Shown: positions 22,619 to 52,499 of the stretch, piece after piece
Numbering within the stretch: position 1 is the stretch's first letter
Layout: every line of letters starts with the position of its first letter
Assembly: GCA_011390575.1 (NCBI GenBank)
Contig: JAABSE010000001.1
Coordinates: 42,328-106,327 of the forward strand
Length of the DNA stretch: 64,000 bases
Direction: 5' to 3'
Source of the DNA: Sphingobacteriia bacterium
Lineage (GTDB): Bacteria; Bacteroidota; Bacteroidia; Bacteroidales; UBA7960
Made by a program: the position numbers and the translations under genes
Notes under the pieces: model-generated
What the model was told of the DNA's origin: nothing
The model's database searches: none
Seen by the model: only the letters and a program-made list of their open reading frames with translations

Positions 22619-23203
22619 ATGCAATCTAGTCCCGAAGTAAAAGTGAAGCTTTACATCAAGTATATGGTTAGCCTTCGGTGCAAGCTGTTGGTGGAGGAAG
22701 AACTCAGGAGATCAGGAATCAGGAATTCGCTGATCGATCTGGGAGTGGTAACATTGCAGGAAGAAATAACTCCGGAACAGCACGAACAACTCAAGACAAA
22801 TCTTTTAAAGTCGGGACTGGAACTGCTTGATGATAAAAAAAGCATTCTGATTGAAAGAATAAAGAATGTGGTCATTGAAATGATTCATTATTCTGAGGAA
22901 CTCCCCAAAGTAAATTACTCAGACTACATCAGCGAAAAACTAGGATACGATTATACCTACCTTTCGAATATATTTTCTGAGGAAAAAGGCATTACCATTC
23001 AGCAGTATATCATCAACAATAAAATTGAAAGAGTAAAGGAACTTTTGTTGTATGACGAGCTTAACCTTACCGAAATTTCTTACCGGCTTCATTATAGCAG
23101 TGTTGCCCATCTCTCCAATCAATTCAAGAAAATTACAGGGATATCTCCTTCCTATTTCAAGAAATTGAAGCTGAAGCGCAGGGGAAATCTTGAAAACCTG
23201 TGA
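22619..23203 (+). CDS. Short AraC-family transcriptional regulator with small N-terminal domain
   Basis: YTYLSNIFS, KIERVKELL, LTEISYRLHYSSVAHLSNQFKKITGISPS double HTH. Confidence 0.92.
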   Translation: MQSSPEVKVKLYIKYMVSLRCKLLVEEELRRSGIRNSLIDLGVVTLQEEITPEQHEQLKTNLLKSGLELLDDKKSILIERIKNVVIEMIHYSEELPKVNYSDYISEKLGYDYTYLSNIFSEEKGITIQQYIINNKIERVKELLLYDELNLTEISYRLHYSSVAHLSNQFKKITGISPSYFKKLKLKRRGNLENL

Positions 23204-23263
23204 TTTATGTAAGACTTTACATTCAGGGTGTAACACAAAAACTTCAGGTGAATACTAATTTTA
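23198..23263 (+). promoter_or_regulatory. Island promoter module, site 1 (overlaps the AraC stop codon)
   Basis: CTGTGATTTATGTAA; TGTAA at 23208 and 23229; TAATTTTA at 23256. Confidence 0.75.
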
Positions 23264-23325
23264 TAGGGTAAAACTATTTACACCTGATTGCGCCAGATGC
23301 GTGAATCCTGAAAACATTTATCACC

Positions 23326-23733
23326 ATGAAAAGTCTTGTAACCTTGTTTGCTGTAGCAGTCTTGCTATTTGCTTCGAATCCAGCCAACCTGAAGGCAGAA
23401 ACCACGATTGATCCTGCTTCGGCAGAAGCTGCAAAATCTGAACTTTTACTCATTACATCAGCAGAGACCAGCCAGTCTGTACTTTCTATTCCGGAAGGTG
23501 AACTGGCAATGGTAAGTTCTGCTGAAGCAGCTGAAACCGCCCATGCTAATGCACTACTCGATAGATTGAATGAAATAAACGAAATGGATATGTCTTCCAT
23601 GAGTTCATCAGAAAAGAATGATCTGAAGAAAGAGGTTCGTGCGATACAAAAAGAACAAAAACAGTCAGGGGGTATTTATATATCTGTTGGCGCAGCTATT
23701 CTTATTGTATTGCTTCTTATTCTATTGCTTTAA
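23326..23733 (+). CDS. Exported protein with C-terminal hydrophobic anchor
   Basis: Signal peptide, SAE-rich linker, helical segment, GGIYISVGAAILIVLLLILLL end. Confidence 0.8.
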   Translation: MKSLVTLFAVAVLLFASNPANLKAETTIDPASAEAAKSELLLITSAETSQSVLSIPEGELAMVSSAEAAETAHANALLDRLNEINEMDMSSMSSSEKNDLKKEVRAIQKEQKQSGGIYISVGAAILIVLLLILLL

Positions 23734-23743
23734 TCTTTAAAAA

Positions 23744-23959
23744 ATGAAGACAACAGGCATAGTGATACTGGTGATAGGTATCCTTATTACCATCTTTACC
23801 GGATTTCAGTTTGTTACCCGGGAAAAAGTAGTGGATATTGGCGAAATACAGATCTCCCGCGACAAAGAACATAGTCTTGCCTGGTCTCCGTTTATCGGGG
23901 TTGCAGTGATGGCATTGGGCGGAGGTATTCTCTTGTTTGGGGCAAAGAAAAAGCCCTGA
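23744..23959 (+). CDS. Small two-TM membrane protein
   Basis: TREKVVDIGEIQIS loop between two hydrophobic helices. Confidence 0.8.
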   Translation: MKTTGIVILVIGILITIFTGFQFVTREKVVDIGEIQISRDKEHSLAWSPFIGVAVMALGGGILLFGAKKKP

Positions 23960-24100
23960 GAATGATTTATACAAATCAACTACTATCTGGTAAAAACAGT
24001 TCCTTCTCAGCTTAACTATTATGGCTGCACTGCAGCTTTTTATTGCATAAACTAAGTTATTGACAAAACGTATTTATTTAACAATTTAAAAATTAAAATC

Positions 24101-24253
24101 ATGGGAAATTTACTTTATATCATTGCCGTAATATTGCTAATTGCTTGGGCCATTGGATTTATAGGCTATAGCGCAGGTGGGATTATACATATTCTGTTGG
24201 TTATTGCAGTTATTGCTGTAATTTTCAGACTCATTTCCGGACGGAAAGTCTAA
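24101..24253 (+). CDS. lmo0937-like small membrane protein (missed by ORF track)
   Basis: MGNLLYIIAVILLIAWAIGFIGYSAGGIIHILLVIAVIAVIFRLISGRKV*. Confidence 0.88.
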   Translation: MGNLLYIIAVILLIAWAIGFIGYSAGGIIHILLVIAVIAVIFRLISGRKV

Positions 24254-24268
24254 CACTTGTAATTTATG

Positions 24269-24396
24269 AGTCCACTCAATAAAAACAATTACCCAGGAAT
24301 GGCAGTAGTTTACGCGAGCTCAATTGTCATATAACCAGTTATTTAAGAGTTGTAAAATTAACTTGAATTCCCGAAAATTCGTTTTGGGAGTGGACT
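24269..24396. repeat. MITE-like element with imperfect terminal inverted repeats
   Basis: AGTCCACTCAATAAAAACAATT...AATTCGTTTTGGGAGTGGACT. Confidence 0.45.
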
Positions 24397-24521
24397 AAGT
24401 TATTGATTGGAATTACCTTCCATCAAAAAATTATACATAACGGGCATGATCCGTTAAACCCAATCATGGATAAAACTCATTATGCGGGTTTTTTCCTTTC
24501 TTAAATTAAATTTATCTATAA

Positions 24522-24800
24522 ATGAAAACAGGAAAAGGATTATTAGGCGTACTGATAGGTGCCACTGCCGGAGCATTGTTGGGCATGCTGTTCGCTCCTC
24601 AAAAAGGTGCCGATGCCCGCAGAAAAATTGAACAAATGAGCAAGGAATACTCAGATACCATCAAAGTGAAATACGACAAAACCCTTGACGATATAACGGA
24701 AAAATTCAGAATGACAAAAGACAAGGTTTCTGATCTTGCCCGTCATGTCAAAACCAGAGAAGAAAAATTAAAAAAAGGCAACGGGGTCAATATTGGTTAA
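24522..24800 (+). CDS. YtxH-domain protein
   Basis: LLGVLIGATAGALLGMLFAPQKGADARRKI. Confidence 0.88.
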   Translation: MKTGKGLLGVLIGATAGALLGMLFAPQKGADARRKIEQMSKEYSDTIKVKYDKTLDDITEKFRMTKDKVSDLARHVKTREEKLKKGNGVNIG

Positions 24801-24803
24801 GTT

Positions 24804-25145
24804 ATGGAAGACAATGTGAATATGTTTGAGGCGCTTTATGAAAAAGCGGTCGATTATGGCAAAACAAGCTTTGAGTTGAATAAACTCAAAGCAATTGAGA
24901 AAACAGCTGATCTCATTTCCTCATTCATACCTCATTTTGTTGTCTTTGTCCTGGTTTCTTTTTTTGTGCTTTCGTTCAATTTTGGTTTAGCATTTTGGAT
25001 AGGCGATGCTTTGGGTAAATTGGCTTACGGATTTTTCATTGTGGCCGGATTTTATTGTATTGCCGGAGCGATTACCCATTTCTTTTTTCACGAAAAGATA
25101 AAAAGGTTGTTTGGTAATTATGTTCTTGAATTATTATTTAAATAA
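24804..25145 (+). CDS. Holin-like/YqjE-like membrane protein
   Basis: ELNKLKAIEK helix followed by two TM segments; follows YtxH gene. Confidence 0.7.
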   Translation: MEDNVNMFEALYEKAVDYGKTSFELNKLKAIEKTADLISSFIPHFVVFVLVSFFVLSFNFGLAFWIGDALGKLAYGFFIVAGFYCIAGAITHFFFHEKIKRLFGNYVLELLFK

Positions 25146-25151
25146 TTACAA

Positions 25152-25550
25152 ATGGACAAAATAACTTCTATTTCCGAATTGAGGAATGCTATTGTGAAAT
25201 TAGAAACTGAACAGGAGGTCAGGGGGCAGTTGTTGCGACAACAATTTCAGTCGACCCTGGAGGGCTTGAAACCGGTTAATATATTAAAATCTGCCGTACA
25301 TGATATTTCGTTGACACCCCATCTGACTTCAAAACTTGCAGGAATGTCTGCCGGGCTGGGCCTGGGATATCTTACCCGAAAATTGGTAATTGGCGCATCA
25401 GGAAGCATTTATGTAAAAGTTTTGGGTTCTGTTGTTCAATTGGGTGTTACAAACCTTATTGCCCGACATTCGGCCAAAATAAAATCAATCACCCGGTTTG
25501 TCAAAAAATCGCTTTTGGGTAGAAGAATACCACACCCAGATGAGCAGTGA
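25152..25550 (+). CDS. Hypothetical protein (third gene of the YtxH triad)
   Basis: Tightly spaced ORF; helical N-terminus and GLGLGYL segment. Confidence 0.75.
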   Translation: MDKITSISELRNAIVKLETEQEVRGQLLRQQFQSTLEGLKPVNILKSAVHDISLTPHLTSKLAGMSAGLGLGYLTRKLVIGASGSIYVKVLGSVVQLGVTNLIARHSAKIKSITRFVKKSLLGRRIPHPDEQ

Positions 25551-25653
25551 GAGGTTTGGCCATACATAACTATTATTAATCGAATAGCCGGGATACACAG
25601 TTTACGAATAGGCTTGTATTCCGGTTTTTTACAACAAAAAAACAGTCTTTACG

Positions 25654-26766
25654 GTGAATATTTCTTTTCAAAAAACGTTTTTTGCCATAGCAACTACTTT
25701 TGCCTTGTTTGCAATATTTGTGGTGGCCAGGCCTATTCTTATCCCCATCAGTTTTGCCCTGCTCATCTCATTTATTCTTCTGCCCCTGGCCAACAGGTTC
25801 GAGAAATGGGGCATAAACCGCATGGCAGCTGCCTTGTTTGCTATTCTGGCAACCATATTATTACTGAGTGGAGGCATCTATCTTTTTTCGACCCAGATTG
25901 TTTCTATTGCCGGCGAATTTTCACATTTTCAGGAAAAAATAATAAATGTATTTGCCGAAGCCACCGCCTGGCTCAACAGCAACATTGGTGTGGTTCCTGA
26001 TCTGGGGAAAGATGAGCTGATGGATCAGCTTAAGAGTTGGCTGAGCAAATCTTCGGGCTCACTTGTTCAGCAAACCTTCAGTGGTTCCGCAGGCTTTGTG
26101 GCCGGATTGATTGCCACGATTATTTTTACTTTTTTGTTTTTGATTTATCGGAAAGGTTTTAAGCAGGCCGTTATTCTGTATTTTCCTGAAGAAAAAAGAG
26201 AAAGAGCCTTTAAAATGCTCAAATCCATTCAGATGGTAGGGCAGAAGTACCTTGTAGGTGTTATCCTGATTGTGATTATCATTGGTTTGATAAACAGTTT
26301 TGCATTATTGATCATCGGAATCGACTACCCCTTTTTATTCGGATTTCTGGCCGCAGTCCTGGCCATCATACCTTATGTAGGTACTACCCTCGGTTCCACC
26401 ATTGTGGTATTGTATGCTTTTATGTCGTATGACTCCCTCTGGATTCCTATTGCGGTGGTCATCACCTTTTGGATTATCCAGGTGGTGGAAAGCAATTTTC
26501 TGAGTCCGAAAATTGTGGGCGGAACTCTGAAAGTTAACGCCCTGGCAGCCATCATAAGTATCATTGTTGGGGCAACAGTATGGGGGATTGCCGGAATGAT
26601 TTTATTTCTTCCCATTACAGCCATGCTGAAAGTAGTTTGTCAGGAATATGAAGAATTGAAACCCATTGCATTGTTTATAGGAGAACAGAATGTTAAAGAG
26701 AAAAAACTGGATACAGAAATTCTGGACAAATTGAAAGGGAAAATTAAAAAAATTGCTTCAAAATAA
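25654..26766 (+). CDS. AI-2E/PerM family transporter
   Basis: IPYVGT, ESNFLSPKIVG, WGIAGMILFLP; GTG start. Confidence 0.9.
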   Translation: MNISFQKTFFAIATTFALFAIFVVARPILIPISFALLISFILLPLANRFEKWGINRMAAALFAILATILLLSGGIYLFSTQIVSIAGEFSHFQEKIINVFAEATAWLNSNIGVVPDLGKDELMDQLKSWLSKSSGSLVQQTFSGSAGFVAGLIATIIFTFLFLIYRKGFKQAVILYFPEEKRERAFKMLKSIQMVGQKYLVGVILIVIIIGLINSFALLIIGIDYPFLFGFLAAVLAIIPYVGTTLGSTIVVLYAFMSYDSLWIPIAVVITFWIIQVVESNFLSPKIVGGTLKVNALAAIISIIVGATVWGIAGMILFLPITAMLKVVCQEYEELKPIALFIGEQNVKEKKLDTEILDKLKGKIKKIASK

Positions 26767-26789
26767 ATTTTAAAACCCCGGATCATACT

Positions 26790-28511
26790 ATGTCACTATA
26801 CCCACAATCATCTAAAGAAGAGCTCCGCAAGCAGGCCGAAGAACGTTTGAAAACCATGCGTTCAACCATAGAACACCATTCTTCAGAAACAGATATCCTG
26901 AAGGTAGTTTATGAATTGCAGGTGTACCAGATAGAACTGGAAATGCAAAACGAAGAATTAAAAGCCGCAATGGAAAAGGCAGAGCTTGCAGAAAAGAAAT
27001 ATATTGAATTGTATGAATCAGCGCCCTCAGGTTATCTGACCCTTTCAAAAGAAGGAGATATTCTGGAGTTGAACCGCAGTGCAGCCATAATGCTGGGCAA
27101 GGAACCTTCAAAACTTATAGACAACCGGTTTGCTCTTTTTATTTCGGAAGAAACACGAGGTGTTTTTGTCCATTTTCTGGAATTGGTACTGAAAAACCAT
27201 CAGAAAGAGAACTGTGAAGTGATCCTGAAGACACCAGGCAATGCGCCTGTATATATAAATATTGTTGCCATTACCAGCAAGGATAAAGAGTTCTGTCTGC
27301 TGACCCTTGTAGATATTACCAAAAGTAAAGAAGCAGAGCAATCATTGTTTCAGCTTAAAGTGGCCAATGAATCCATTAAATTCAAACAGAACTTCCTGGC
27401 CAATATCAGCCACGAAATGCGAACACCCCTTACAGGAATCCTGGGAATGATTGATATTCTTGAACATACAGAACTGACCCCAACTCAAAAGGACTATTTC
27501 GATACCTTAAAACACTCCAGTGAAAATCTCAGAGAAATTATCAACCAGGTACTGGATTATTCTAAAATAGAAGCCGGAAAAGTGAAATTGAAACCGACCC
27601 ATTTTTCATTGAAAGAGTTGCTGGCAGAAACGAAGATGTTGTACAAAGGGAGTGTTAAGCCCGGGGTGCAATTCAGCACTGATTCCGACCTTAAAATCCC
27701 GGCTTTAATTCATGCCGACGAAAATCGCATAAAGCAGATCATCAACAATCTTGTCGCCAATGCCCTGAAATTTACCAATAAGGGTTCTGTAGTACTTAGC
27801 AGCCATTTGTTATCGCCCGACCCCCTCAGCAAACAGGCAATTGTTAAAATTGCTGTTACTGATAGTGGAATTGGTATTCCTTTTGAAATGCAGGAAAAGC
27901 TTTTTCGTCCCTTTTCGCAAATTGATGATAAAGACACACGTAAATATGAGGGCACCGGGTTAGGCTTGTCAATATGTAAAGAGCTTGTAATGCTTTTGGG
28001 AGGTAAAATTGGAGTGATAAGCGAATACCGCAAAGGTAGTACCTTTTGGTTTGTGTTTCCGGCAATATTAACAGACGCTAAAGCGAATACAACAAAACCG
28101 GCGGATCCGCATGATCAGGCATCCTCTGATGAAAAAATAAACAATAATCACAGCCTGAATATCCTGTTTGCTGAAGATAAACTGATAAACCAAAAGGTGA
28201 TAAGCCTTATTCTTACCTCTATGGGACATAAGGTTACCCTTGCCAGCAACGGTGAGCAGGCGCTAAGCTTATATAAACCCAGCGAATTTGATCTGATTCT
28301 GATGGATATCCAAATGCCTGTAATGGATGGTATTACTGCAACCAAAAAGCTAAAAGAAAAATACAAACATTTGCCACCCATTGTTGGTCTCAGTGCCAAT
28401 GCCTTTGAAGGAGACCGCGAAAAATACATGGTGCTGGGAATGGATGAATATCTTACCAAACCCTTTGAAAAAGAAGAGTTTGTTGAATTAACGGCTAAGC
28501 TCCTGCACTGA
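26790..28511 (+). CDS. Cytoplasmic hybrid histidine kinase (coiled coil-PAS-HisKA-HATPase-REC)
   Basis: QIELEMQNEEL; SHEMRTPL; NLVANALKFT; GTGLGLSI; LILMDIQMPVMDG. Confidence 0.93.
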   Translation: MSLYPQSSKEELRKQAEERLKTMRSTIEHHSSETDILKVVYELQVYQIELEMQNEELKAAMEKAELAEKKYIELYESAPSGYLTLSKEGDILELNRSAAIMLGKEPSKLIDNRFALFISEETRGVFVHFLELVLKNHQKENCEVILKTPGNAPVYINIVAITSKDKEFCLLTLVDITKSKEAEQSLFQLKVANESIKFKQNFLANISHEMRTPLTGILGMIDILEHTELTPTQKDYFDTLKHSSENLREIINQVLDYSKIEAGKVKLKPTHFSLKELLAETKMLYKGSVKPGVQFSTDSDLKIPALIHADENRIKQIINNLVANALKFTNKGSVVLSSHLLSPDPLSKQAIVKIAVTDSGIGIPFEMQEKLFRPFSQIDDKDTRKYEGTGLGLSICKELVMLLGGKIGVISEYRKGSTFWFVFPAILTDAKANTTKPADPHDQASSDEKINNNHSLNILFAEDKLINQKVISLILTSMGHKVTLASNGEQALSLYKPSEFDLILMDIQMPVMDGITATKKLKEKYKHLPPIVGLSANAFEGDREKYMVLGMDEYLTKPFEKEEFVELTAKLLH

Positions 28512-28595
28512 TCCTCTCTGTAAAACTTTACACCTTTCGGGTAAAGAGTTTTTCTGTGATTTTATTTGCAAAGAATGGTATTGTTGAATCAGTAC

Positions 28596-28661
28596 CTGTG
28601 AATTATGCAATTCTTAATGGCTATTGTATAATAGCTGCGTATTGCAATAGGCTTACCTTTA
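28596..28661 (+). promoter_or_regulatory. Island promoter module, site 2
   Basis: CTGTGAATTATGCAA; TGCAA 28606, TATAA 28627, TACCTTTA 28654. Confidence 0.75.
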
Positions 28662-28692
28662 CCTTGAACAAAACTACAAAACAAAAAACGAA

Positions 28693-29739
28693 ATGATACA
28701 AGTTATAAAGCATGGAGTATTGTTGTCAAAAACCGATCTGGATTTTGAAAACGAAAGTGTGTTGAATCCAGCCGTCATACGTGAGGGTGACAGCGTACAT
28801 ATTTATTACAGAGCTGTAAGCCTGGGAAATCATTCATCACTTGGCTATTGCCGGCTTGATGGCCCCCTGACCCTGGCCGAACGGTGGGATAAGCCTTTTA
28901 TGGTGCCTGAGTTTGATTTTGAATCACAGGGTGTGGAAGATGCCCGGGTCACGAAAATCGATGACGTTTTTTATATGACCTATACCGGGTACGATGGTCT
29001 GAATGCCAGGGGTGCTTTGGCTACATCCAGAGATTTGTTGCATTTCGAAAAGCATGGTTTGCTGGCACCACCGGTTACTTACGCCGAATTTGTATCCATT
29101 GTAGAATCATCCAACAAGGTAAATGAAGAATACTGGCTGAATCAAAAGTTTTATTATCAATCCACTGATATTGAAAAGAAAAAGCTGCTATGGGATAAAA
29201 ACATCATCTTCTTTCCCCGCAGAATCAATAATAAACTTGCATTTTTACATCGGTTAAGGCCAGGTATTCAGCTTGTTTTGGTAAATACAATTGAAGATCT
29301 TACCCGGGAATTCTGGCTGGATTATTTTCATGAACTCCATAAGCATGTTGTTCTTGATCCACACCCACATCATAATCACGAATCGTCCTATATAGGCGGC
29401 GGTTGCCCCCCCATTGAAACGCCTCACGGCTGGTTAATGATCTATCATGGAGTAGAAAAGACCGAACACGGATTTGTATATTCAGCCTGCGCTGCACTGC
29501 TGGATTTAGACAATCCTGCAAAAGTACTGGCGCGATTGCCTTATGCTTTGTTTTCACCGGAGTATGACTGGGAATTAAACGGTGAAGTTAATAATGTAGT
29601 GTTTCCAACCGGCACAGCCTTATTTGGCGACACTCTTTTTATTTATTATGGTGCAGCAGATTCGCACATCGCCATTGCATCGGTGAAACTGACTGAACTG
29701 GTTAATGAACTATTATCATACACGAAAAAAAATGGATAA
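28693..29739 (+). CDS. GH130-family glycosidase/phosphorylase
   Basis: VLNPAV, YYRA, GVEDAR, GGGCPPI, GEVNNVVFP, YYGAAD. Confidence 0.88.
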   Translation: MIQVIKHGVLLSKTDLDFENESVLNPAVIREGDSVHIYYRAVSLGNHSSLGYCRLDGPLTLAERWDKPFMVPEFDFESQGVEDARVTKIDDVFYMTYTGYDGLNARGALATSRDLLHFEKHGLLAPPVTYAEFVSIVESSNKVNEEYWLNQKFYYQSTDIEKKKLLWDKNIIFFPRRINNKLAFLHRLRPGIQLVLVNTIEDLTREFWLDYFHELHKHVVLDPHPHHNHESSYIGGGCPPIETPHGWLMIYHGVEKTEHGFVYSACAALLDLDNPAKVLARLPYALFSPEYDWELNGEVNNVVFPTGTALFGDTLFIYYGAADSHIAIASVKLTELVNELLSYTKKNG

Positions 29740-32104: not shown

Positions 32105-32112
32105 ATACGATA

Positions 32113-45062: not shown

Positions 45063-45177
45063 CGTAAAGAATACCTGGTCAATACTCTCCCGCAAAATGC
45101 GGGAGAGATTGCGAGGTGGCAGCGAAGCTAAATCTGAATATTTTAACCGGAAACCAATAGTAATAAAAGCGTGTATT

Positions 45178-46089
45178 ATGGAACCAAAACAATCATTTTT
45201 CCCGAAGGATACTAACTTCTACCGACCTCAAAACGGTTCTGCTGTTAACGGAGCTTCACATTCACTTAAGCCCAATGGAGTTAAAGCAGATGATGGTAAA
45301 GTCCTTAAAAGCCAAATCATGATGCGGTTGGAGGAACTGGAAAAACAAAATGACCGGCTTAAAAATATTATTGAACAGCGCAAAAACGAAATTTCTGAAC
45401 TTATTGCAGCCAATAAAGAATATATTTCTGTACTGGCACATGATCTGAAAAGCCCCTTTAGTACCATTTATGGCGTATTGGGCTTACTTAAGGACTGCGT
45501 TCATGAAGGCAATTATGAGGAAATGGAAGCGTATCTGGATATTGCGTCCAGCTCCTCTATCAATACAACCAACCTGATAGAAAATATCCTGGCATGGGCA
45601 CAAATGCAAGGCACAGAAAAACGGTTTAATCCCATTAGGGTAAATCTTGCACACCTTGTAGGGCGGGAAATAGAGAATAGTAACCTTGCCGTGAAGCTGA
45701 AAAAAATATCATTGAGCCATACTATTCCAGAGAATTTTATGGTGAGGGCTGACCTTCATATGTCTCAATCGATTGTAAGAAATCTGATCAGTAACGCCAT
45801 TAAATTTACAAATCCCGGAGGAAATATTACCATAAGTGCCAAAGAAGCGAATCCATTCATTGAAATAATGGTAAAAGACGATGGCATTGGAATCTCCACG
45901 AAAGACCAGCAGAGATTATTCAATAAGGATACCCCCGAAGAAGTTGCAGGCAACAGCAATGTAAAGGGCAAAGGACTTGGATTGATGCTTTGCAGAGAAT
46001 TCGTTGTCATGAATGGAGGAATCTTGTGGGTAGAAAGCCAGCCAGGCAAAGGAAGTAGTTTTATTTTCACCTTGCCTAATTACGAATAA
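45178..46089 (+). CDS. Sensorless cytoplasmic histidine kinase (start placed at ATG 45178)
   Basis: Coiled coil, AHDLKSP, RNLISNAIKFT, DDGIGI, GLGL. Confidence 0.88.
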   Translation: MEPKQSFFPKDTNFYRPQNGSAVNGASHSLKPNGVKADDGKVLKSQIMMRLEELEKQNDRLKNIIEQRKNEISELIAANKEYISVLAHDLKSPFSTIYGVLGLLKDCVHEGNYEEMEAYLDIASSSSINTTNLIENILAWAQMQGTEKRFNPIRVNLAHLVGREIENSNLAVKLKKISLSHTIPENFMVRADLHMSQSIVRNLISNAIKFTNPGGNITISAKEANPFIEIMVKDDGIGISTKDQQRLFNKDTPEEVAGNSNVKGKGLGLMLCREFVVMNGGILWVESQPGKGSSFIFTLPNYE

Positions 46090-46136
46090 TATACGAACGA
46101 AGCCATGACTGAGCGAATTAATAAAATTATAAACAA

Positions 46137-46934
46137 ATGAAGAAATGGACATTTTTCCTGCTGTCATTAGTCATTATGGTGGGATGTGCTAAGAACCTCT
46201 TGACAGGTCGCAGGCAACTTAAACTGGTAAGTGAGTCTGAAATGCAAATGATGGCTGTTGATCAATACAGAACCTTCATAACAGAACACAATGTGTTGGG
46301 TTCAGGAAACGATCAAGCTGCCATGGTCAAACGTGTGGGAAACCGCATTGCCAATGCAGTTACCAAATACTACACCGAACAAGGCAAACCTGAGTTATTG
46401 GAAGGATACGACTGGGAGTTTAATACTATAGAAAGTGAAGAAGTAAATGCCTGGGCTATGCCCGGGGGTAAGGTCATGGTATACTCAGGCATATTTGCTG
46501 TTACCCAAAATGAAACTGCACTTGCCATAGTGATGGGACATGAAATTGCCCATGCTGTTGCCAGGCATGGTAGTGAAAGAATGAGCCAGGCCCTGGCTCA
46601 GCAATTGGGCGGCATGGCATTGGATATTGCCCTGACTAATGAGCCTGAGCAAACCAGGAATCTGTTTTTATTGTCATATGGTATTGGAAGTCAGGTGGGT
46701 GCAATTCTTCCATGGTCGCGTCAACAGGAAACAGAAGCGGATAAGTATGGGCTGATTTTTTCTGCTATGGCGGGTTATAATCCCAGGGAGGCTATTCCTT
46801 TCTGGCAAAGAATGTCATCAGCAGGTGGAGCCAGTCCTCCTGAATTTCTTAGCACACACCCTTCAGATCAGACAAGAATGAAAAGGTTAGAGCAATTTAT
46901 GCCCGAAGCACTGAAGCATTATTCACCGAAGTAA
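46137..46934 (+). CDS. M48-family metallopeptidase lipoprotein
   Basis: VGC lipobox; NAWAMPGG; HEIAH; ETEAD; STHP. Confidence 0.92.
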   Translation: MKKWTFFLLSLVIMVGCAKNLLTGRRQLKLVSESEMQMMAVDQYRTFITEHNVLGSGNDQAAMVKRVGNRIANAVTKYYTEQGKPELLEGYDWEFNTIESEEVNAWAMPGGKVMVYSGIFAVTQNETALAIVMGHEIAHAVARHGSERMSQALAQQLGGMALDIALTNEPEQTRNLFLLSYGIGSQVGAILPWSRQQETEADKYGLIFSAMAGYNPREAIPFWQRMSSAGGASPPEFLSTHPSDQTRMKRLEQFMPEALKHYSPK

Positions 46935-47082
46935 TTTTACTGCTGATTTGCTAAAAATTACAATAATTGATTTTCGTGATTGATTTGTGGTTTTTTTTAA
47001 TTTAATTTGCATATTTATGTTTAAATAAACACCAGATTCATACATCTGGTTTCCTGCCCAACGACAAAATTACCTCATTGAA

Positions 47083-50025
47083 ATGGCCAAAACAGAGAAA
47101 TCAAAACCAGTGACTCCCAAAACCAGGGCAACCTCAAGAGAAAAAAAGCCGGCTGCTGATTCCGCATTATTTCCTGTCGTAGGGATTGGTGCATCAGCCG
47201 GAGGGCTGGAAGCCATAGAACAATTCCTGAAAAATGTACCTGAAGAAAGCGGAATGGCCTATGTGGTGGTTCAGCATCTGGATCCCACCCAGAAAGGGAT
47301 GCTTCCTGAGTTGCTTCAGCGGGTCACTCCACTGAAAGTTTATCAGGTTAAGGATAACATGAAGGTTAATCCCAATTGTGTTTATGTGATTCCTCCCAAT
47401 AAAAGCATGTCAATCCTTCATGGGAAACTTCAGCTGTTTCAACCTCTGGAATCAAGGGGGCTGCGTCTTCCCATTGATTTTTTTCTGCGATCCCTGGCCG
47501 ATGATCTTAGAGAGTGGAGTGTTGGGCTTATTCTCTCGGGGATGGGCTCTGATGGTAGTACAGGGTTACGTGCCATAAAAGAAAAAAACGGGATTGTAAT
47601 GGTGCAGGAGCCTGATACAGCAAAATACGATAGCATGCCCCGCAATGCCATTGAATCCGTGCTGGCAGATATTGTAGCACCTCCCCACGAGCTTTCCGGA
47701 AAACTTATCGAATTTTACAAGCATATCCCCCAGGTTAAGTCCAGTATAGATCTAGAAAACAAAGATCAGAGTGCGCTGGAAAAAATTATCTTGCTGCTTC
47801 GCAGCTATACCGGTAACGATTTTTCTCAATATAAAAAAAGCACCTTGTATCGCCGGATCGAAAGACGCATGGGGGTGCATAAAATAGGTAAGATAGCCTC
47901 TTACGTTACCCTCTTGCAGGATAATCCCACAGAAGGAGAAATACTTTTCAAGGAATTGATGATTGGTGTTACCAGTTTTTTTCGCGACCCCAAAGTATGG
48001 GAGAAACTGGGACAGGAGATTATTCCTGCTTATATTGGCAAACAAACGGAAAATACCTTATTGCGGGCCTGGGTGCCAGGTTGTTCTTCTGGCGAAGAGG
48101 CCTATAGTCTCGCCATTGTTTTAAAAGAAGCCCTGGAGATTATCAGTTCATCCAAAAATATTTCTTTACAGATTTTTGCCACCGACCTGGATCACGATGC
48201 TGTTGAAACAGCCCGAAAAGGACTTTTCCCTGTAAATATTGAAGCCGATGTGTCATCCCGCTACCTGTCGAAATATTTTGTGAAATCCGAGGACGGCTAT
48301 CGCGTAAATAGTGAAATACGAGAAATGGTGGTGTTTGCCCAGCACAATCTTATCATGCACCCCCCGTTTATTAATATCGATATCATCACTTGCCGCAATC
48401 TGCTTATATACCTGGATTCAGACCTTCAGAAAAAAATCCTCGGGCTTTTTTATTTTAGCCTCAATAATAAGGGAATTATGGTGCTGGGTAGTTCAGAAAC
48501 CCTGGGTGCCATGGGCAATCTTTTTGAAGCAACAGACAGTAAACTTAAAATATTTAGACGCGATGCCAATGCAGTGACACCTGATTTGCTGAGTTTTCCT
48601 TCAACGTACTCACGCTCAAAACCCGCCACTATTGAAAAACCGGCTACAGAGACCTCTCATTCCAATATACAAGCACTCGCTGACCGGATACTACTGCAGC
48701 AGTATTCTCCTCCGGGGGTTCTGGTAAATGATAGTGGCGACATATTATATATCAACGGGCGTACCGGTAAATATCTTGAACCCGCTGCAGGGAAAGCGAA
48801 CCTGAATATTTTTCCTATGCTGCGCGAAGGTTTGCGCCAGGAGTTTCATCTTGCTTTCCACCAGGTTAAGGCAAAAAAGGGGTCGATGGTATTGCACAAT
48901 TTAAAAGTGGGAACCAATGGTTCTGCCCAAACCCTTAATATTAGCATTCAATACGTTGAAAAACCAGGCCCACTAAGAGGTACGTTAATGATTATCTTTA
49001 TTGATGTTCCTGATAGCATTGATACCAAAGCTCAGCCCAAATCCGAGGGTAAAACCTCAAAGAGCAGTCGGGAAACCGAACTGGAGAAAGAACTCCAGTA
49101 TACCCGCGAAGAAATGCAAAGCACCCTGGAGGAAATGCAAACCTCACAGGAAGAACTTAAATCAACCAATGAAGAACTGCAATCGGCCAATGAGGAACTG
49201 CAATCGGCCAATGAAGAGCTTACCAGCTCAAAGGAAGAGATGCAAAGCCTCAACGAAGAACTGCAAACCCTCAATGCAGAACTCCTTGTAAAAGTAGAGG
49301 ATTATGTGAGGGTGGACAACGATATGAAGAACCTGCTCAACAGCACCGATATCGCTACGCTGTTTCTTGACAAAGAGCTTAATATTCGCCGTTTCACTAT
49401 CCAGGCCACCAAAATCTTTAAGCTTATAAAAAGCGATATCGGCAGACCATTTACAGACCAGGTTTCGGACCTCAATTACCCCGAAATGGCCGAAGATGCA
49501 AAGGAGGTATTGCGAACACTTGTATTTATTGAGAAGCAAATTCCCGGAAAAAACGGAAGCTGGTTTTCTATTCGCCTGATGCCTTATCGCACTTTTGATG
49601 ATCGGATTGACGGCCTGGTAATAACCTTTATAGATATTTCAGCACTGAAACGTATGGAAGAAAAATGCAGGGAGACCAGGCAGGTGCAAAGGTTGTTGTT
49701 AGATGCAGCAACAGATGTGATCATTAAATTGTCACCTGACCAGAAAATTGTGGAATTCAACTTTGAAGCTGAAAAGTTTTTTGGTGAAAAACGCGAAAAT
49801 ACCATAAAGCAGGACTTTGTTCAGATGTTTGTGCCCGAACCCAGGCAAAGAAAGACAAGTCAGTTACTGGCAAAGATGGTAAACAATTTGAAGGATGGGA
49901 GGTTGAAAACTGAAGTAATTGCAGCCAAAGGCACTACTTCTGAAGTGGTTTTTTCAGCCAAAGTATTGGTCGATACCATGAATAAGCTTACAGGAATGGT
50001 TTTAATAGGCGAATGGAACCGGTAG
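47083..50025 (+). CDS. CheB methylesterase-CheR methyltransferase-PAS-coiled coil-PAS fusion
   Basis: GASAGG, QHL, SGMGSDG (CheB); VTSFFRD, GCSSGEEAYS, CRNLLIY (CheR); EELQSANEEL heptads; no kinase domain. Confidence 0.92.
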   Translation: MAKTEKSKPVTPKTRATSREKKPAADSALFPVVGIGASAGGLEAIEQFLKNVPEESGMAYVVVQHLDPTQKGMLPELLQRVTPLKVYQVKDNMKVNPNCVYVIPPNKSMSILHGKLQLFQPLESRGLRLPIDFFLRSLADDLREWSVGLILSGMGSDGSTGLRAIKEKNGIVMVQEPDTAKYDSMPRNAIESVLADIVAPPHELSGKLIEFYKHIPQVKSSIDLENKDQSALEKIILLLRSYTGNDFSQYKKSTLYRRIERRMGVHKIGKIASYVTLLQDNPTEGEILFKELMIGVTSFFRDPKVWEKLGQEIIPAYIGKQTENTLLRAWVPGCSSGEEAYSLAIVLKEALEIISSSKNISLQIFATDLDHDAVETARKGLFPVNIEADVSSRYLSKYFVKSEDGYRVNSEIREMVVFAQHNLIMHPPFINIDIITCRNLLIYLDSDLQKKILGLFYFSLNNKGIMVLGSSETLGAMGNLFEATDSKLKIFRRDANAVTPDLLSFPSTYSRSKPATIEKPATETSHSNIQALADRILLQQYSPPGVLVNDSGDILYINGRTGKYLEPAAGKANLNIFPMLREGLRQEFHLAFHQVKAKKGSMVLHNLKVGTNGSAQTLNISIQYVEKPGPLRGTLMIIFIDVPDSIDTKAQPKSEGKTSKSSRETELEKELQYTREEMQSTLEEMQTSQEELKSTNEELQSANEELQSANEELTSSKEEMQSLNEELQTLNAELLVKVEDYVRVDNDMKNLLNSTDIATLFLDKELNIRRFTIQATKIFKLIKSDIGRPFTDQVSDLNYPEMAEDAKEVLRTLVFIEKQIPGKNGSWFSIRLMPYRTFDDRIDGLVITFIDISALKRMEEKCRETRQVQRLLLDAATDVIIKLSPDQKIVEFNFEAEKFFGEKRENTIKQDFVQMFVPEPRQRKTSQLLAKMVNNLKDGRLKTEVIAAKGTTSEVVFSAKVLVDTMNKLTGMVLIGEWNR

Positions 50026-50125
50026 TTTTGGTGGCCATGGAGTTAGGGTTGTGCCCCGGATGAAGACAAGAGGTATTGTTGAAAAAATACATACAATGAA
50101 TATATAGAAATTAATTTATAATACC

Positions 50126-50680
50126 ATGAAAACCGAAGAACCTGATTTTACAGATCCGCGCGCATTGCGCCAGCAGGCCGAGAAATTGCTTCAGCAAAAA
50201 ATGGAAAAAGCCATGCAGGAGGAGAAAAATGAAGCCGATGCCCAAAAGCTTTTACATGAATTACAGGTGCACCAGATAGAACTCGAAATGCAGAATGAGG
50301 AACTCCTTAAGGCTTATGAGACAGCAGAAGCCGCATTAAAGAAGTTTACCATTGTTTTCGACCAGGCACCCATGGGGTTTATTACCCTGGAAAGCGACGG
50401 TACGATTGCTGAATTGAACTTTGCTGCTGCAGAGATGCTTGGCGACCGGCGTTTTAGCCTTATGGGAAGCAATTTTAAGCTGTATATTGAAGACGAATCC
50501 AAAACTGCCTTTTCCGATTTTTTCAAAAAAACATACGCCACCCACCAGAAGCAATCATGCAATATATTGCTGGGTAACGACACAGAGTCTAATCATCAGA
50601 TATATATAGAAGGAATTGTAATTGAGAATGACGACAGATGCATGTTGTCTTTAGTGGATGTGACTAGTTTTACAGAATAA
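50126..50680 (+). CDS. Stand-alone coiled coil-PAS protein
   Basis: LQVHQIELEMQNEEL then PAS; homologous to the N-terminus of the kinase at 26790. Confidence 0.85.
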   Translation: MKTEEPDFTDPRALRQQAEKLLQQKMEKAMQEEKNEADAQKLLHELQVHQIELEMQNEELLKAYETAEAALKKFTIVFDQAPMGFITLESDGTIAELNFAAAEMLGDRRFSLMGSNFKLYIEDESKTAFSDFFKKTYATHQKQSCNILLGNDTESNHQIYIEGIVIENDDRCMLSLVDVTSFTE

Positions 50681-50692
50681 TTGGAAATAAAA

Positions 50693-50812
50693 AGTGCAGC
50701 CTTAAAACTACCTTCTGGTCGTCGTTGAGCTTGTCGAAAAGATATCTGCATATCAGGCTATAATATGCTTCGACAGGCTCAGCACCCGGGTAATATGTTT
50801 TAAGGCAGCACT
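50693..50812. repeat. 120-bp nested inverted-repeat (MITE-like) element
   Basis: AGTGCAGCCTTAAAAC...GTTTTAAGGCAGCACT enclosing GTTGAGCTTGTCGAA...TTCGACAGGCTCAGC. Confidence 0.75.
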
Positions 50813-50856
50813 CATGCTTATTCAAAGCCCTCTTCTAAGCGAATCAGAGCTGCAAT

Positions 50857-51525
50857 CTAAAACCGGTATCCTAATGAAAGTCCGAATCCGGTATTCATGA
50901 GGGATAATTCATTCTCCGGCAACCTGTTGTCTTCAGGATTTATCTTCAGCAGGCCCAGCTGCGCGTTGAGCTGGAAGAATAATCCGCTGGCCATTTCATA
51001 ACCCGCAAAAATATTTCCCCCTACATCAAGTGGTTTAAAATACGTTTCTGTTAAAGGGTCGCCTGCATCAACCGTATTGGTGAATTCAATATCACTCTCA
51101 TAGGATACCGAACCCCCTTCATGTTTTGCCTTACCCATGATTCCATAACCTACATAGGGGCCAAAACCAACCAGAACATATCCCTGGCCGAGCAAACCTT
51201 TATAAACAAAATTTAGTGGTAGTTCAAGATACGAAAGGTTATAAGTGCTTGTGATGGGGCCGGTGGTGGTTTTCGCTCCTTTGGTGGAGAAAAGCAAGCC
51301 GGGTTGAAAATAGAATTCAGGGGCTATGGGTATCTGTACGTTGGCTCCGATATGATAACCGACGATCATGTCATTGTCTAGTTGATCTCCATCCATATCT
51401 TTTCCATTCAGATTTTGGAAATTAACACCTCCTAAAAGGCCAAAAGCAGGCCCTGTAGTTTGAGCAAAGGTAAATGTTGCTGAAAGCAAGAGCATTATAG
51501 CAATAGATGTTATTTTGAATTTCAT
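50857..51525 (-). CDS. Outer-membrane beta-barrel (porin-family) protein
   Basis: Signal peptide; FQPGLLFSTKG, YLELPL, GFGPY, GLSLGYRF. Confidence 0.85.
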   Translation of the reverse strand: MKFKITSIAIMLLLSATFTFAQTTGPAFGLLGGVNFQNLNGKDMDGDQLDNDMIVGYHIGANVQIPIAPEFYFQPGLLFSTKGAKTTTGPITSTYNLSYLELPLNFVYKGLLGQGYVLVGFGPYVGYGIMGKAKHEGGSVSYESDIEFTNTVDAGDPLTETYFKPLDVGGNIFAGYEMASGLFFQLNAQLGLLKINPEDNRLPENELSLMNTGFGLSLGYRF

Positions 51526-51557
51526 GTTTGTTTTTTTTATAGTTATAATGAATAGAA

Positions 51558-52229
51558 TTATTTGGCAGCTTCCTTTTCAGCCTCAGCTTTCATTTTTTCG
51601 TTGGCAGTAATCAGAAACTCGACTCTGCGGTTCTGTCGGCGGCCTTCGGCTGAACTGTTATCATATCTGGGTGTATTCTCACCAAAACCTCTCACGGTAA
51701 GTCGTAAACTGGAAATGCCTTTTTGTGAAAGGTAATTGGATACGGCACCGGCGCGTTGAATAGAAAGATTCTGGTTGTAGGCTTCAGATCCTCTGCTATC
51801 GGTGTGTCCCTGTATTTCAATATCTGTTTCATCATAGCTGTTCAGAACCAAAACCAGCTTGTCAAGGTTAGTTTTCGCCTCATCAGACAACCCAGACTGG
51901 TCAAAACCAAACAGAATGTTGCTGTTAAACTCCACAACAATACCTTCGCCAACCCGCTCTACCCTTGCATCGGGTACATTTCTCTGGATTTCTTCAGCCT
52001 GCTTATCCATTTCATTGCCTATTACAGCACCTGCGGCACCTCCAACGGTAGCCCCTATGATTGCACCCAGGGCCGTGTTACCTGATGCTCTTCCTATTAC
52101 GGCACCTGCTGCTCCGCCTGTGGCGGTTCCTGCAGCAGCACCTTTCTGGGTTTTGTTCCAGGAAGCGCAGCCCGCAAAAAGAATTGCTGCAACGAATGCC
52201 ATTATTAAACTTAATTTGATTTTTTCCAT
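51558..52229 (-). CDS. OmpA-family lipoprotein with glycine zipper (YiaD-like)
   Basis: FAGC lipobox, Gly-zipper, GHTDSRG...NQNLSIQRA, NRRVE. Confidence 0.92.
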   Translation of the reverse strand: MEKIKLSLIMAFVAAILFAGCASWNKTQKGAAAGTATGGAAGAVIGRASGNTALGAIIGATVGGAAGAVIGNEMDKQAEEIQRNVPDARVERVGEGIVVEFNSNILFGFDQSGLSDEAKTNLDKLVLVLNSYDETDIEIQGHTDSRGSEAYNQNLSIQRAGAVSNYLSQKGISSLRLTVRGFGENTPRYDNSSAEGRRQNRRVEFLITANEKMKAEAEKEAAK

Positions 52230-52433
52230 TATTATAAATTTTAAATGTAAGGCCGGATGCAATCCGCAAGATGAATAAGCATCCGTGTTTTGTTAACGAA
52301 TCATGCTCGCTGTATTATGTATCGATGGTTAAGATTAGATAGATTTAGAACATCAGCCATGGGCAATACAAAATATCTTTGTATTGCTTCCATGGCATGA
52401 TTTTTAGTCATTATCAAAAAAGAATTCAACAAT

Positions 52434-52499
52434 CAAAATTACTTCCCTCTTAGCCGGAAAGTGTTACATCTATTATTAAATAAGTTGCATGATTCCCAC
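52434..52499 (-). promoter_or_regulatory. Island promoter module, site 8 (minus strand, facing ompA)
   Basis: Reverse complement GTGGGAATCATGCAA; TGCAA 52489, TGTAA 52468, TAATTTTG 52441. Confidence 0.75.

Follow-up and report, generated by a model that had tools for sequence, protein, structure and literature searches.

AraC/XylS proteins are mostly activators. In E. coli, AraC binds araBAD at I1–I2, direct-repeat half-sites 21 nt apart of which the proximal one reaches the upstream promoter element. It carries an arabinose-binding cupin/dimerisation domain and serves few sugar operons. MarA, SoxS and Rob of the Enterobacteria act through the housekeeping sigma factor on a multi-operon stress regulon, using an asymmetric ~16–20 nt box with two contacts one helical turn apart; MarA and SoxS lack a sensor domain and use single boxes. 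The large, heterogeneous regulons of SigB (Firmicutes) and RpoS (Proteobacteria) depend on alternative sigma promoters, and in Firmicutes the hallmarks of the general stress response include CsbD, YtxH and lmo0937-family genes. Bacteroidota housekeeping promoters have the consensus TTTG at −33 and TAnnTTTG at −7, and ECF sigma promoters typically have −35 elements that end in AAC.

Here we analyse a 64,000-nt stretch of the genome of a Bacteroidota bacterium (the window), in which a promoter-like module recurs beside a gene for a small AraC-type protein. The module and its putative regulator resemble AraC at I1–I2 in the type of DNA-binding domain and in the 21-nt direct repeats, but differ in having a heavy-metal-associated (HMA)-like ferredoxin fold in place of the cupin domain, at least 12 units and a Bacteroidota −7/−33 promoter type; no looping site like that of the AraC system was seen. 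With MarA/SoxS/Rob they share the fold of the DNA-binding domain, the asymmetric box and the predicted regulon architecture, but the boxes are in tandem in one fixed register and the HMA-like domain is N-terminal, whereas the extra domain of Rob is C-terminal and unrelated. The targets overlap with those of SigB/RpoS in CsbD, YtxH and lmo0937-family genes and are similarly numerous and heterogeneous, although control is proposed to run through an activator site in a housekeeping promoter. A literature search found no description of this module/regulator system.

Geometry and rarity of the module

The features of the window are listed below; modules were identified by alignment and matrix.

22619–23203, + strand: regulator gene, HMA-like N-terminal domain plus AraC/MarA-type DNA-binding domain (Pfam, AF2 model, Foldseek)
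23196–23265, +: module 1 (site 23198), overlapping the regulator stop codon
23326–28511, +: gene block 1, inferred to be a single operon; 135-aa protein, 71-aa protein, lmo0937-family 50-aa membrane protein (24101–24253, +), YtxH (24522–24800, +), holin-like 113-aa protein, 132-aa protein, AI-2E transporter, PAS hybrid histidine kinase with receiver domain; conserved behind the module in 4–6 compared genomes
28594–28663, +: module 2 (site 28596)
28693–32745, +: gene block 2; GH130 phosphorylase (behind the module in 4 genomes), 799-aa GT4 glycosyltransferase, PIG-L-like deacetylase
32794–32863, +: module 3 (site 32796)
32901–39335, +: gene block 3; CsbD (32901–33086, directly behind the module in 7 genomes), MlaE, MlaF-type ABC ATPase, MlaD, 605-aa protein, phosphofructokinase-family protein
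39349–39418, +: module 4 (site 39351)
39440–40596, +: gene block 4; Thivi_2564-family 61-aa membrane protein, BrkB-family membrane protein; conserved behind the module in 5 genomes
41124–41193, +: module 5 (site 41126), box 2 displaced 3 nt
41264–42604, +: B12-binding radical SAM protein; behind the module in 6 genomes
42831–42900, +: module 6 (site 42833)
42938–44011, +: Big_5 plus ice-binding-like (DUF3494) protein
44221–44290, +: module 7 (site 44223)
44349–50680, +: gene block 7; second CsbD paralog (44349–44540), 158-aa protein, histidine kinase, M48 peptidase, CheB-CheR-PAS fusion, PAS protein
50857–52262, −: gene block 8; OmpA/glycine-zipper lipoprotein-like protein, OMP β-barrel protein; conserved behind the module in 4–5 genomes
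52432–52501, −: module 8 (site 52499)
53428–53865: IS200-like transposase gene, adjoining the end of the island

All eight sites named in the original prediction are present at the coordinates given and align without gaps, anchored on the first TGYAA, to the consensus CTGTGAWTTA-TGTAAC-N15-TGTAAC-N21-TAnnTTTR. Box 1 is exactly TGTGAWTTATGYAA at five of them, and sites 42833, 44223 and 52499 depart from consensus at 1–3 positions. The predicted spacings recur in our counts: box 2 (TGTAA/TATAA/CGTAA) starts exactly 21 nt after the first TGYAA in 7/8 sites, the exception being site 41126 with TGCAAC at +24, and a −7 element (TAnnTTTR; AATCTTTG in module 7) starts exactly at +48 in 8/8, matching the −7 half of the Bacteroidota housekeeping promoter at a fixed offset. 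The −33 half is missing: the window modules have no conserved TTTG at the expected distance of ~19 nt before the −7 element, where the 3′ end of the TGTAAC of box 2 lies instead. Because of this replacement we call the module a putative activator-dependent promoter; the class II-like arrangement proposed earlier, with the proximal of two direct repeats 21 nt apart where TTTG would be, also holds. Conservation is confined to the boxes, and the spacers vary among copies (mean column identity 67%). In other orders the offset of the −7 element is mostly occupied by CAyCTTTG.

The rarity of the module is equally an observation. The exact box 1 14-mer occurs six times in the 4.1 Mb genome, five of them inside the window. 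A 70-nt matrix built from the eight window sites and scanned over the whole genome scores its own sites at 50–62 bits (32–53 bits on leave-one-out) and finds four further modules (23.6–41.5 bits) on two other contigs; beyond these 12 modules, nothing in the genome exceeds 17 bits. With a 12-site matrix there are 14 matches above 20 bits in the forward genome and none in the reversed genome, where the maximum is 14.5. When only box 1 is searched for, 55 matches are found in the genome, of which seven are accompanied by box 2 at +21 and by the −7 element at +48, all of them modules; none of the remaining 48 has both. A chance origin of the module is excluded. Confinement of the regulon to this island proved too narrow: eight units do lie in the window, but at least two other contigs of this genome carry modules and the system is phylum-wide.

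In all 12 modules of the genome a same-strand open reading frame (ORF) starts 21–202 nt beyond the module end, in agreement with the proposal that each copy heads and faces a gene block. This orientation bears on the idea that the modules are a dispersed repeat, such as a mobile promoter or MITE-like element, without a shared regulator. The copies do cluster in islands, and the transposase gene lies beside the end of this one. Yet a repeat would not be expected to conserve only the boxes while its spacers differ, to face an ORF start in 12/12 copies, or to stand with different spacers before orthologous genes in other orders, and we regard this explanation as extremely improbable.

The putative regulator and its paralogs

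The regulator ORF as listed encodes 194 aa. Its true start is probably the GTG at 22643, because orthologs start at MKLY, which would give a 186-aa protein beginning MKLYIKYMVSLRCK. At its other end, CTGTGA of module 1 forms the last Leu codon and the TGA stop. The protein matches Pfam HTH_18 (61.6 bits, cut-off 33.6) and HTH_AraC (54.4 bits, cut-off 26.6) and is modelled by AF2 with a pLDDT of 85.8. Its DNA-binding domain has the ~100-aa C-terminal form with two helix-turn-helix motifs that characterises the AraC/XylS family, and Foldseek aligns it to the DNA-binding domains of MarA, AraC, AdpA and SoxS (TMt 0.65–0.81; MarA/SoxS structures 1bl0, 1xs9 and 7w5w).

The N-terminal domain has the β-α-β-β-α-β ferredoxin-like order of an HMA fold in the AF2 model (E9-14, H19-31, E37-40, E43-46, H52-64, E68-70), and Foldseek relates it to CopZ (6ff2), Atx1 (2xmv), ZiaA (2ofg), CadA (2aj0) and GolB (4y2i) with TMt 0.64–0.73. 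The E-values of these matches are only 0.05–0.12 because the query was the whole protein; the Pfam HMA profile does not match the regulator at E ≤ 0.01. The two-cysteine metal loop of HMA domains (GMTCxxC) is absent too, the loop reading MVSLRC, with Ser18 and Cys21 invariant in 22/22 aligned orthologs. Mean identity of the regulator across the phylum is 77%, both recognition helices included, which is in keeping with the conservation of the boxes. That it is a sequence-specific DNA-binding activator is inferred from genome comparison only, without binding or expression data.

A paralog class of HMA–AraC proteins (20 loci) retains CxxC in 18 loci. These proteins share with the regulator the domain order, the module geometry and an operator over their own stop codon; they differ in the retained CxxC, in TGTAAAT-type boxes and in serving one metal-efflux operon, whereas for the SxxC class the sites are numerous in each genome. 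In 13/20 loci the variant box 1 covers the TAA stop codon of the paralog itself, and the variant module, measured at one locus (L146), has the same offsets as the module (30 nt to box 2, 57 nt to −7). Genes for an HMA chaperone, a P1B-type ATPase and an RND pump come after the CxxC paralog of the source genome (contig C163), whose site aligns ungapped to the module matrix at 22.9 bits. The genome also encodes a second SxxC-type paralog (contig C173), 65% identical to the regulator and differing from it at two positions of the recognition helices; there is no module beside its gene. We cannot tell whether the module is read by the regulator copy in the window, by the C173 paralog or by both.

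Co-occurrence and linkage of module and regulator

Modules track the regulator across genomes. Among 41 relatives (the source genome included), with orthologs defined by at least 57% identity over full length (for G002 a fragment at the edge of a contig, 87% identical, was accepted), 15/15 genomes with an ortholog carry 7–18 modules each. Of the 26 without, 21 have no module, three have one, G010 has two and G001, which is 82% complete, has four. G010, at 96% completeness, stands as an exception: no ortholog was found to go with its two modules. A further 150 genomes were sampled from the class; counting modules at E ≤ 1e-4 and full-length orthologs at ≥57% identity, 28/32 ortholog-bearing genomes, one of which (G134) is unpublished, have modules, versus 9/118 others; two of these nine have partial matches of 59–62% identity. 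Three of the four ortholog-bearing genomes without a module at this threshold have a matrix match of 23–30 bits beside the ortholog, and G147 reaches only 16.9 bits.

Presence and absence of module and regulator vary together even within single genera (g25, g26, g29 and g43). In four ortholog-lacking congeners, none of five csbD homologs has a module within 400 nt upstream (best scores below 0). SxxC-type relatives at 52–55% identity (G142, G053 and G188) have weak nearby sites or none. Among 114 box-1-only matches in loci of other genomes, which had been picked for holding model hits, box 2 stands at exactly +21 in 100 and NTTTR at +51 in 95; every other offset stays below 15%.

Module and regulator are also co-located, and this arrangement is conserved across orders. 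A module lies within about 3 kb of the ortholog in 60/80 loci (orthologs 71–86% identical), with linked loci in Bacteroidales, Chitinophagales, Cytophagales, Flavobacteriales and one Balneolaceae-labelled MAG. There are 92 module matches in 481 kb of ortholog loci versus none in the same loci reversed. In 27/80 loci, phylum-wide, the last codon of the regulator gene and its stop form the beginning of the module. No match above 20 bits was found in 20/80 loci, including 8/11 from Chryseobacterium. Modules stand directly upstream of a regulator gene copy in G025, G033 and G035 and, by coordinates, upstream of the regulator gene in G043, G047, G095, G096, G133 and G150. In the window there is no module upstream of the regulator gene, only an ordinary-looking TTTG-N20-TAACTTTC. 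These comparisons, namely co-occurrence, linkage, upstream modules and the variant module of the paralogs, lend strong support to the proposal that the cognate regulator is the short AraC protein at 22619, though no experiment does.

The same co-occurrence would be seen if another factor read the modules and the regulator gene merely belonged to that factor's regulon in every genome. Such a factor could be the C173 paralog, an unrecognised DNA-binding protein or an ECF-type sigma factor using TGTAAC as a −35 element, and co-occurrence and linkage cannot separate a protein that binds the module from one that is always regulated by it. The C173 paralog has the SxxC motif and nearly identical recognition helices, and TGTAAC has an ECF-like AAC ending. 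A sigma factor, however, would not account for conserved positions reaching ~60 nt upstream of the −7 element in two direct repeats, which is too long, and 21 nt separate box 2 from the housekeeping TAnnTTTR, where 16–17 nt would be expected for ECF. Among the 30 ORFs scanned in the island, no sigma-factor, other helix-turn-helix or other DNA-binding domain was found beyond the regulator. The variant module over the paralogs' own stop codons is hard to explain unless the family reads such sites, and relatives with only 39–51% paralogs are mostly module-free (G003, G008, G016, G022, G032 and G039); class-sample genomes G094 and G136, also with only such paralogs, have two module matches each. 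A different reader is on balance distinctly unlikely.

Targets and proposed mode of action

We read the modules as activator-dependent promoters of the Bacteroidota housekeeping sigma factor, controlled by the 186-aa regulator in a regulon that here comprises at least 12 transcription units, eight of them in the window, and give this reading a probability of roughly 0.7. Each 70-nt copy would combine a normal −7 element (TAnnTTTR) with two direct-repeat operators in place of the −33 TTTG, their TGTAAC cores exactly 21 nt, or two helical turns, apart and with TGTGAA, one turn upstream of the distal core, as a second contact of that operator. The most likely reader (22619–23203) would pair an HMA-like ferredoxin fold, its metal-binding CxxC reduced to SxxC with the Cys invariant, with a MarA-type two-helix-turn-helix domain. 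One DNA-binding domain may occupy each operator, with the proximal copy abutting RNA polymerase in a class II-like manner, as AraC does at I1–I2. Direct binding, two-copy binding, activation rather than repression, and induction by stress are all inferred, as no binding, transcription-start or expression data exist for them; contigs from two RNA libraries cover csbD but can show neither induction nor a transcription start.

The predicted regulon encodes small stress proteins along with envelope and signalling proteins. Behind site 44223 the first gene, originally taken to be an 84-aa ORF, is instead the 63-aa CsbD paralog. Secreted Big_5/ice-binding-like proteins are the commonest first-gene family behind modules (10/150 ORFs scanned). 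The 'general stress' label is an inference that fits the CsbD, YtxH, lmo0937, OmpA/glycine-zipper, MlaEFD and KaiCB families; nothing but family names supports it directly, and for many targets the function is not known. It also fits the fact that only one region-3-bearing sigma factor gene was found in the ~90% complete genome.

An unlikely alternative is that the regulator represses, or acts as a dual regulator, or that the regulon is narrower than general stress, answering to envelope, osmotic, cold or desiccation stress, or to a metal/thiol signal from its HMA ancestry. A protein bound at box 2, over the −33 position, could occlude polymerase. Against repression, absence of the −33 TTTG from 8/8 window copies leads us to expect a weak promoter, an inference that favours activation, as does the prevalence of activators among AraC/XylS members. 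A narrower programme could draw on the envelope and surface targets (OmpA, OMP barrels, MlaEFD, BrkB and ice-binding-like proteins that end in Por secretion tails), and a metal/thiol signal on the invariant Cys kept in the HMA-like loop and on the nearest paralog class standing before metal-efflux genes; the Firmicutes-type general-stress hallmarks CsbD, YtxH and lmo0937 argue for the broader label.

The role of the regulator as a substitute for a stress sigma factor, as originally suggested, remains an inference without expression or binding data. The module travels across the Bacteroidota in the company of a single small AraC-type regulator of high conservation, a possible master stress switch for the phylum.

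A rigid promoter module and the genes behind it

The original prediction held that eight sites in the window share one sequence of fixed internal geometry. The eight are real and align without gaps when anchored on the first TGYAA, with a box 1 of CTGTGAWTTA-TGTAAC. A second box, claimed to lie exactly 21 nt further on, recurs as TGTAAC at +21 nt from the first TGYAA in seven of the eight, the exception being site 41126 (TGCAAC at +24), and the proposed −7 element, TAnnTTTR, starts at +48 in all eight. The exact 14-mer TGTGAWTTATGYAA occurs six times in the 4.1-Mb source assembly (198 contigs, 89.85% complete), five of these inside the window. The copy outside the island (contig C22, position 41036) has neither box 2 nor −7 element and was rejected as a chance match.

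A 70-nt matrix trained on the eight window sites, which score 50–62 bits (32–53 bits in leave-one-out), retrieves four extra sites in the genome at 23.6–41.5 bits: C27:4176(−), C27:7648(−) and C27:4253(+) on one contig and C170:3381(+) on another. Beyond these 12 sites the scan with this matrix found nothing above 17 bits. Retrained on all 12 sites, the matrix gives 14 matches above 20 bits in the forward genome (the 12 modules, a 20.1-bit site and a variant module of a paralog), compared with none in the reversed genome, where the maximum is 14.5 bits. Among 55 genome matches to box 1 alone, seven combine box 2 at +21 with the −7 element at +48, and every one of these is a module; the combination is absent from the remaining 48. 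The predicted orientation towards genes also extends to all 12 modules, each having a same-strand ORF start 21–202 nt away. A weak module-like site of 20.1 bits at C109:111530 (+), about 5 kb past the window end, may be a thirteenth, degenerate copy.

Regulator gene and genes headed by the modules of the source genome
22619-23203 (+): regulator, an HMA-like plus AraC protein; module 1 overlaps its stop codon
23198 (+): 135-aa protein, 71-aa protein, lmo0937-family membrane protein, YtxH, holin-like protein, 132-aa protein, AI-2E transporter, PAS hybrid kinase
28596 (+): GH130, GT4 glycosyltransferase, PIG-L-like protein
32796 (+): CsbD, MlaE, MlaF, MlaD, 605-aa protein, PFK-family protein
39351 (+): Thivi_2564-family peptide, BrkB
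41126 (+): B12-binding radical SAM protein
42833 (+): Big_5 plus ice-binding-like protein
44223 (+): second CsbD, 158-aa protein, kinase, M48 peptidase, CheB-CheR-PAS fusion, PAS protein
52499 (−): OmpA/glycine-zipper protein, OMP barrel
C27:4176(−) and C27:4253(+), divergent modules (locus L001): PLP enzyme/flavoprotein/decarboxylase operon on one side, MarC on the other
C27, 5228-7648 (−) (L001): unknown 202-aa protein, PRC-barrel protein, baeRF (bacterial eRF1-like) protein
C170, 3381-6756 (locus L002): kaiC-kaiB-kaiB-PAS operon

A KaiCB timer or switch thus appears to be part of the regulon. The listed 419-aa histidine-kinase ORF at 44830-46089 (+) overlaps the conserved 158-aa ORF at 44586-45062; to judge from three congener homologues of 303 aa, it probably begins further downstream than listed. 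An IS200-like (Y1 transposase) gene at 53428-53865 (+) lies just past the last module, at the island edge.

Conservation of the module and its association with the regulator

A sequence-only covariance model built from the 12 sites was used on relatives and on a class sample. Of 40 relatives, 14 have 7–18 module copies each by this model, including four from other families of the same order. In the class sample of 150 further genomes, 37 have copies at E ≤ 1e-4, with a maximum of 29 in one genome; these class-sample counts are minima, since scoring was limited to 33 candidates per genome. The ungapped matrix recovers the same sites in fetched loci (80 and 52 matches in two locus sets), so the geometry is rigid. 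Consistent spacing is also seen in 114 box-1-only matches in the fetched loci, which were selected for containing model matches: box 2 lies at exactly +21 in 100 and NTTTR at +51 in 95. Because their spacers are not conserved, the modules are constrained sites rather than recent repeat copies. In other orders (loci L127–L145 of genomes G047 and G043, and L017–L023 of G033) the −7 element is mostly CAyCTTTG, not TAnnTTTG, and the box spacer often contains an AACTT...AAGTT inverted repeat that is missing from the source genome.

Clustering of downstream ORFs reveals a core shared across orders. CsbD stands immediately behind a module in seven genomes and the YtxH block in four to six; other members are ice-binding-like proteins, radical SAM proteins, OmpA with an OMP barrel, a 61-aa peptide with BrkB, MlaEFD, the kinase with M48 and CheBR, and GH130 with GT4. 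Pfam families were tallied for 150 of 179 candidate first ORFs (the omitted 29 include the window ORFs, which were scanned separately), giving Ice_binding (10 ORFs), OmpA (5), AraC, CsbD, B12-binding and Por_Secre_tail (4 each), MlaE, BrkB, GH130 and Response_reg (3 each), and Dodecin and YtxH (2 each).

The original prediction tied the module to this type of AraC gene, and the two do co-occur. All 15 genomes among the relatives that carry an ortholog, the source genome included, have at least seven modules (orthology here meaning a full-length identity of 57% or more; for G002 it is 87% over a contig-edge fragment). The 26 relatives without an ortholog comprise 21 with no module, three with one, G010 with two and G001 with four; the G001 assembly is 82% complete, and the expected regulator-gene position falls off a contig start. 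Paralogs of 40–51% identity alone show no association with modules in these relatives. The class sample behaves likewise, with modules in 28 of 32 genomes with an ortholog (one being the unpublished genome G134) versus 9 of 118 without. Two of those nine contain partial matches of 59–62% identity, and three of the four module-less ortholog genomes have, on inspection, a 23–30-bit site beside the regulator gene. Within single genera of this sample, ortholog and module switch presence and absence together, a pattern that argues for repeated joint gain or loss. As related genomes are not independent, no P value is given for this phyletic profile. No module was found upstream of five csbD homologues in four congeners lacking the regulator ortholog.

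A collection scan returned 558 relatives of the regulator, the best 80 of which are 71–86% identical and labelled Bacteroidales, Chitinophagaceae, Saprospiraceae, Cyclobacteriaceae, Chryseolinea, Ohtaekwangia, Chryseobacterium, Empedobacter, Aquimarina and Galbibacter, with one Balneolaceae-labelled MAG; a few MAG titles are clearly wrong. A module lies within about 3 kb in 60 of these best 80 ortholog loci (92 matches versus 0 in the reversed loci). The present matrix misses most of the Chryseobacterium loci. In 27 of the 80 the module starts 4 nt before the end of the last sense codon, and there, as in the window, the final Leu codon and TGA stop form the CTGTGA of box 1. Genomes G025, G033 and G035 have a module directly upstream of a regulator-gene copy, as do G043, G047, G095, G096, G133 and G150 upstream of the regulator gene by coordinates, which suggests positive feedback in these lineages. 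No module was found upstream of the window regulator gene (22619).

The 135-aa gene was considered as a universal partner and rejected: only 5 of 76 ortholog loci with a locatable gene end have it behind the regulator, and its only family match is DUF6272 at E 0.003, below the cut-off. CsbD is encoded within 3 kb downstream of the regulator in 19 of these 76 loci. Directly upstream of the window regulator (20220-22404, +) lie two rhodanese-domain genes and a thioredoxin-like gene, all without a module; this sulfur/thiol context beside a regulator with an invariant cysteine may or may not be meaningful.

The regulator family and a proposed mechanism

Orthologs start with MKLYIKYMVSLRCK and finish with NLENL, and by this comparison the GTG at 22643 is the probable start of the window gene. 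Across 22 sequences from several orders the mean column identity is 77%, and both recognition helices, Ser18, Arg20, Cys21 and Lys22 are invariant. In an AlphaFold model (pLDDT 85.8), residues 9–70 form a β-α-β-β-α-β domain, followed by a linker helix and an AraC domain of seven helices. By Foldseek, MarA, SoxS, AraC and AdpA match the C-terminal part. Its matches for the N-terminal part have the metallochaperone HMA fold (CopZ, Atx1, ZiaA, CadA and GolB); the E-values of these HMA matches are weak because the whole protein was the query. The regulator loop has SxxC in place of the canonical CxxC.

The source genome also encodes an HMA–AraC paralog that keeps CxxC (C163:10176-10754, minus strand, locus L126; 48% identical), behind which lie an HMA chaperone, a P1B-type ATPase and an RND pump. 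A variant module with TGTAAAT-type boxes lies across the gene's own TAA stop and aligns ungapped to the module matrix at 22.9 bits. In paralog loci from other genomes a TGTAAAT-type box covers the stop codon in 13 of 20 and CxxC is kept in 18 of 20; at one of them (L146), the distances from box 1, 30 nt to box 2 and 57 nt to the −7 element, match the module offsets. Such paralogs look like a class of local metal-efflux regulators related to the stress regulator. The strongest sign that the modules are read by this family itself is that two related subfamilies each have their own box variant at their own stop codon.

A second SxxC-type paralog (C173:3462-4013, locus L125; 65% identical) differs slightly in its recognition helices, and no module was found beside it. 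On contig C32 (L004), an intergenic stretch at about 2101-2170 contains four TGTAAC cores with an exact 21-nt period; the gene downstream encodes a 1341-aa hybrid two-component protein ending in an AraC-type domain. The cores may form an array of operators for a different AraC-type protein.

The module has a housekeeping −7 element and no −33 TTTG, the 3′ end of box 2 occupying the −33 place. Its distal operator combines TGTGAA and TGTAAC one helical turn apart, and the TGTAAC core recurs two turns further on, in the proximal operator. In MarA–DNA structures, two contacts one turn apart suit one two-helix-turn-helix domain. A −7 element without −33, box 2 in its place and paired contacts together point to a class II-type, activator-dependent promoter for two regulator copies, like that of AraC at I1–I2. 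One two-helix-turn-helix domain would engage the contact pair of the distal operator, and two regulator copies would occupy the module; binding, stoichiometry, sign of regulation and input signal are all inferred. A homodimer prediction for two copies scored 0.00, which counts neither for nor against binding. More speculatively, the invariant cysteine in the HMA-like loop could serve as a thiol or metal-bridged switch, and the kinases, CheBR fusion and KaiCB of the regulon could add further feedback layers. That the regulator both reads and activates the module is, in our view, likely.

A candidate stress programme for Bacteroidota

CsbD, YtxH and lmo0937-family proteins are products of classical SigB-type genes, and OmpA, MlaEFD and BrkB (envelope), GH130 and GT4 (sugar-modifying) and KaiCB fit a survival programme. 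Bacteroidota are not known to have RpoS- or SigB-type sigma factors. The search for sigma-70 region 3 returned only one ORF in the roughly 90% complete source genome, which agrees with the absence of such factors. Two salt-lake metatranscriptome runs, available as contigs only, had small word shares (0.16 and 0.07). When their contigs were compared with 22501-42500, near-identical ones covered csbD at 32889-33111 (X1) and 32915-33112 (X2), with one mismatch each and different ends; neither reaches module 3, they give no start, strand or level, and the libraries may contain DNA.

The boldest reading is of a general stress or dormancy programme across the phylum, which may be governed by an ultra-conserved HMA-like AraC activator that would have begun as a local metal-efflux regulator and lost one metal-binding cysteine. 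It would act through a fixed 70-nt class II cassette spread before dozens of operons (at least 29 in one genome), often including its own gene and KaiCB, as the counterpart of a stress sigma factor. We put the probability of this reading at roughly 0.45. That the regulator is the general stress master regulator of the phylum remains a tentative proposal, held at a little under even odds.

A full-text search, which did not extend to supplements or most subscription journals, found no published description of the regulator, motif or regulon. AraC-family activators, direct repeats 21 nt apart and Bacteroidota −7 promoters are of known kinds. What appears new is their combination: an HMA-like sensor domain joined to an AraC domain, an operator placed on the stop codon of the regulator gene itself, a rigid cassette of 70 nt that has spread to between a dozen and dozens of stress-type operons, and phylum-wide conservation.

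Bacteroidota lack the RpoS and SigB systems known from the model phyla, so how their general stress response is organised is not settled. The 186-aa protein family, about 77% identical across orders, is a testable candidate for this control, with a predicted regulon and an operator/promoter grammar precise enough to scan any genome. Culturable carriers exist in Chryseobacterium, Empedobacter, Algoriphagus, Ohtaekwangia, Aquimarina and Galbibacter, and the module, if activator-dependent, would give Bacteroidota genetics a ready inducible promoter cassette. The pair of SxxC and CxxC paralogs is a natural example of how a metal regulator with a local role may turn into a global one. If the reading is true, the regulator would fill the role of a stress sigma factor in Bacteroidota.
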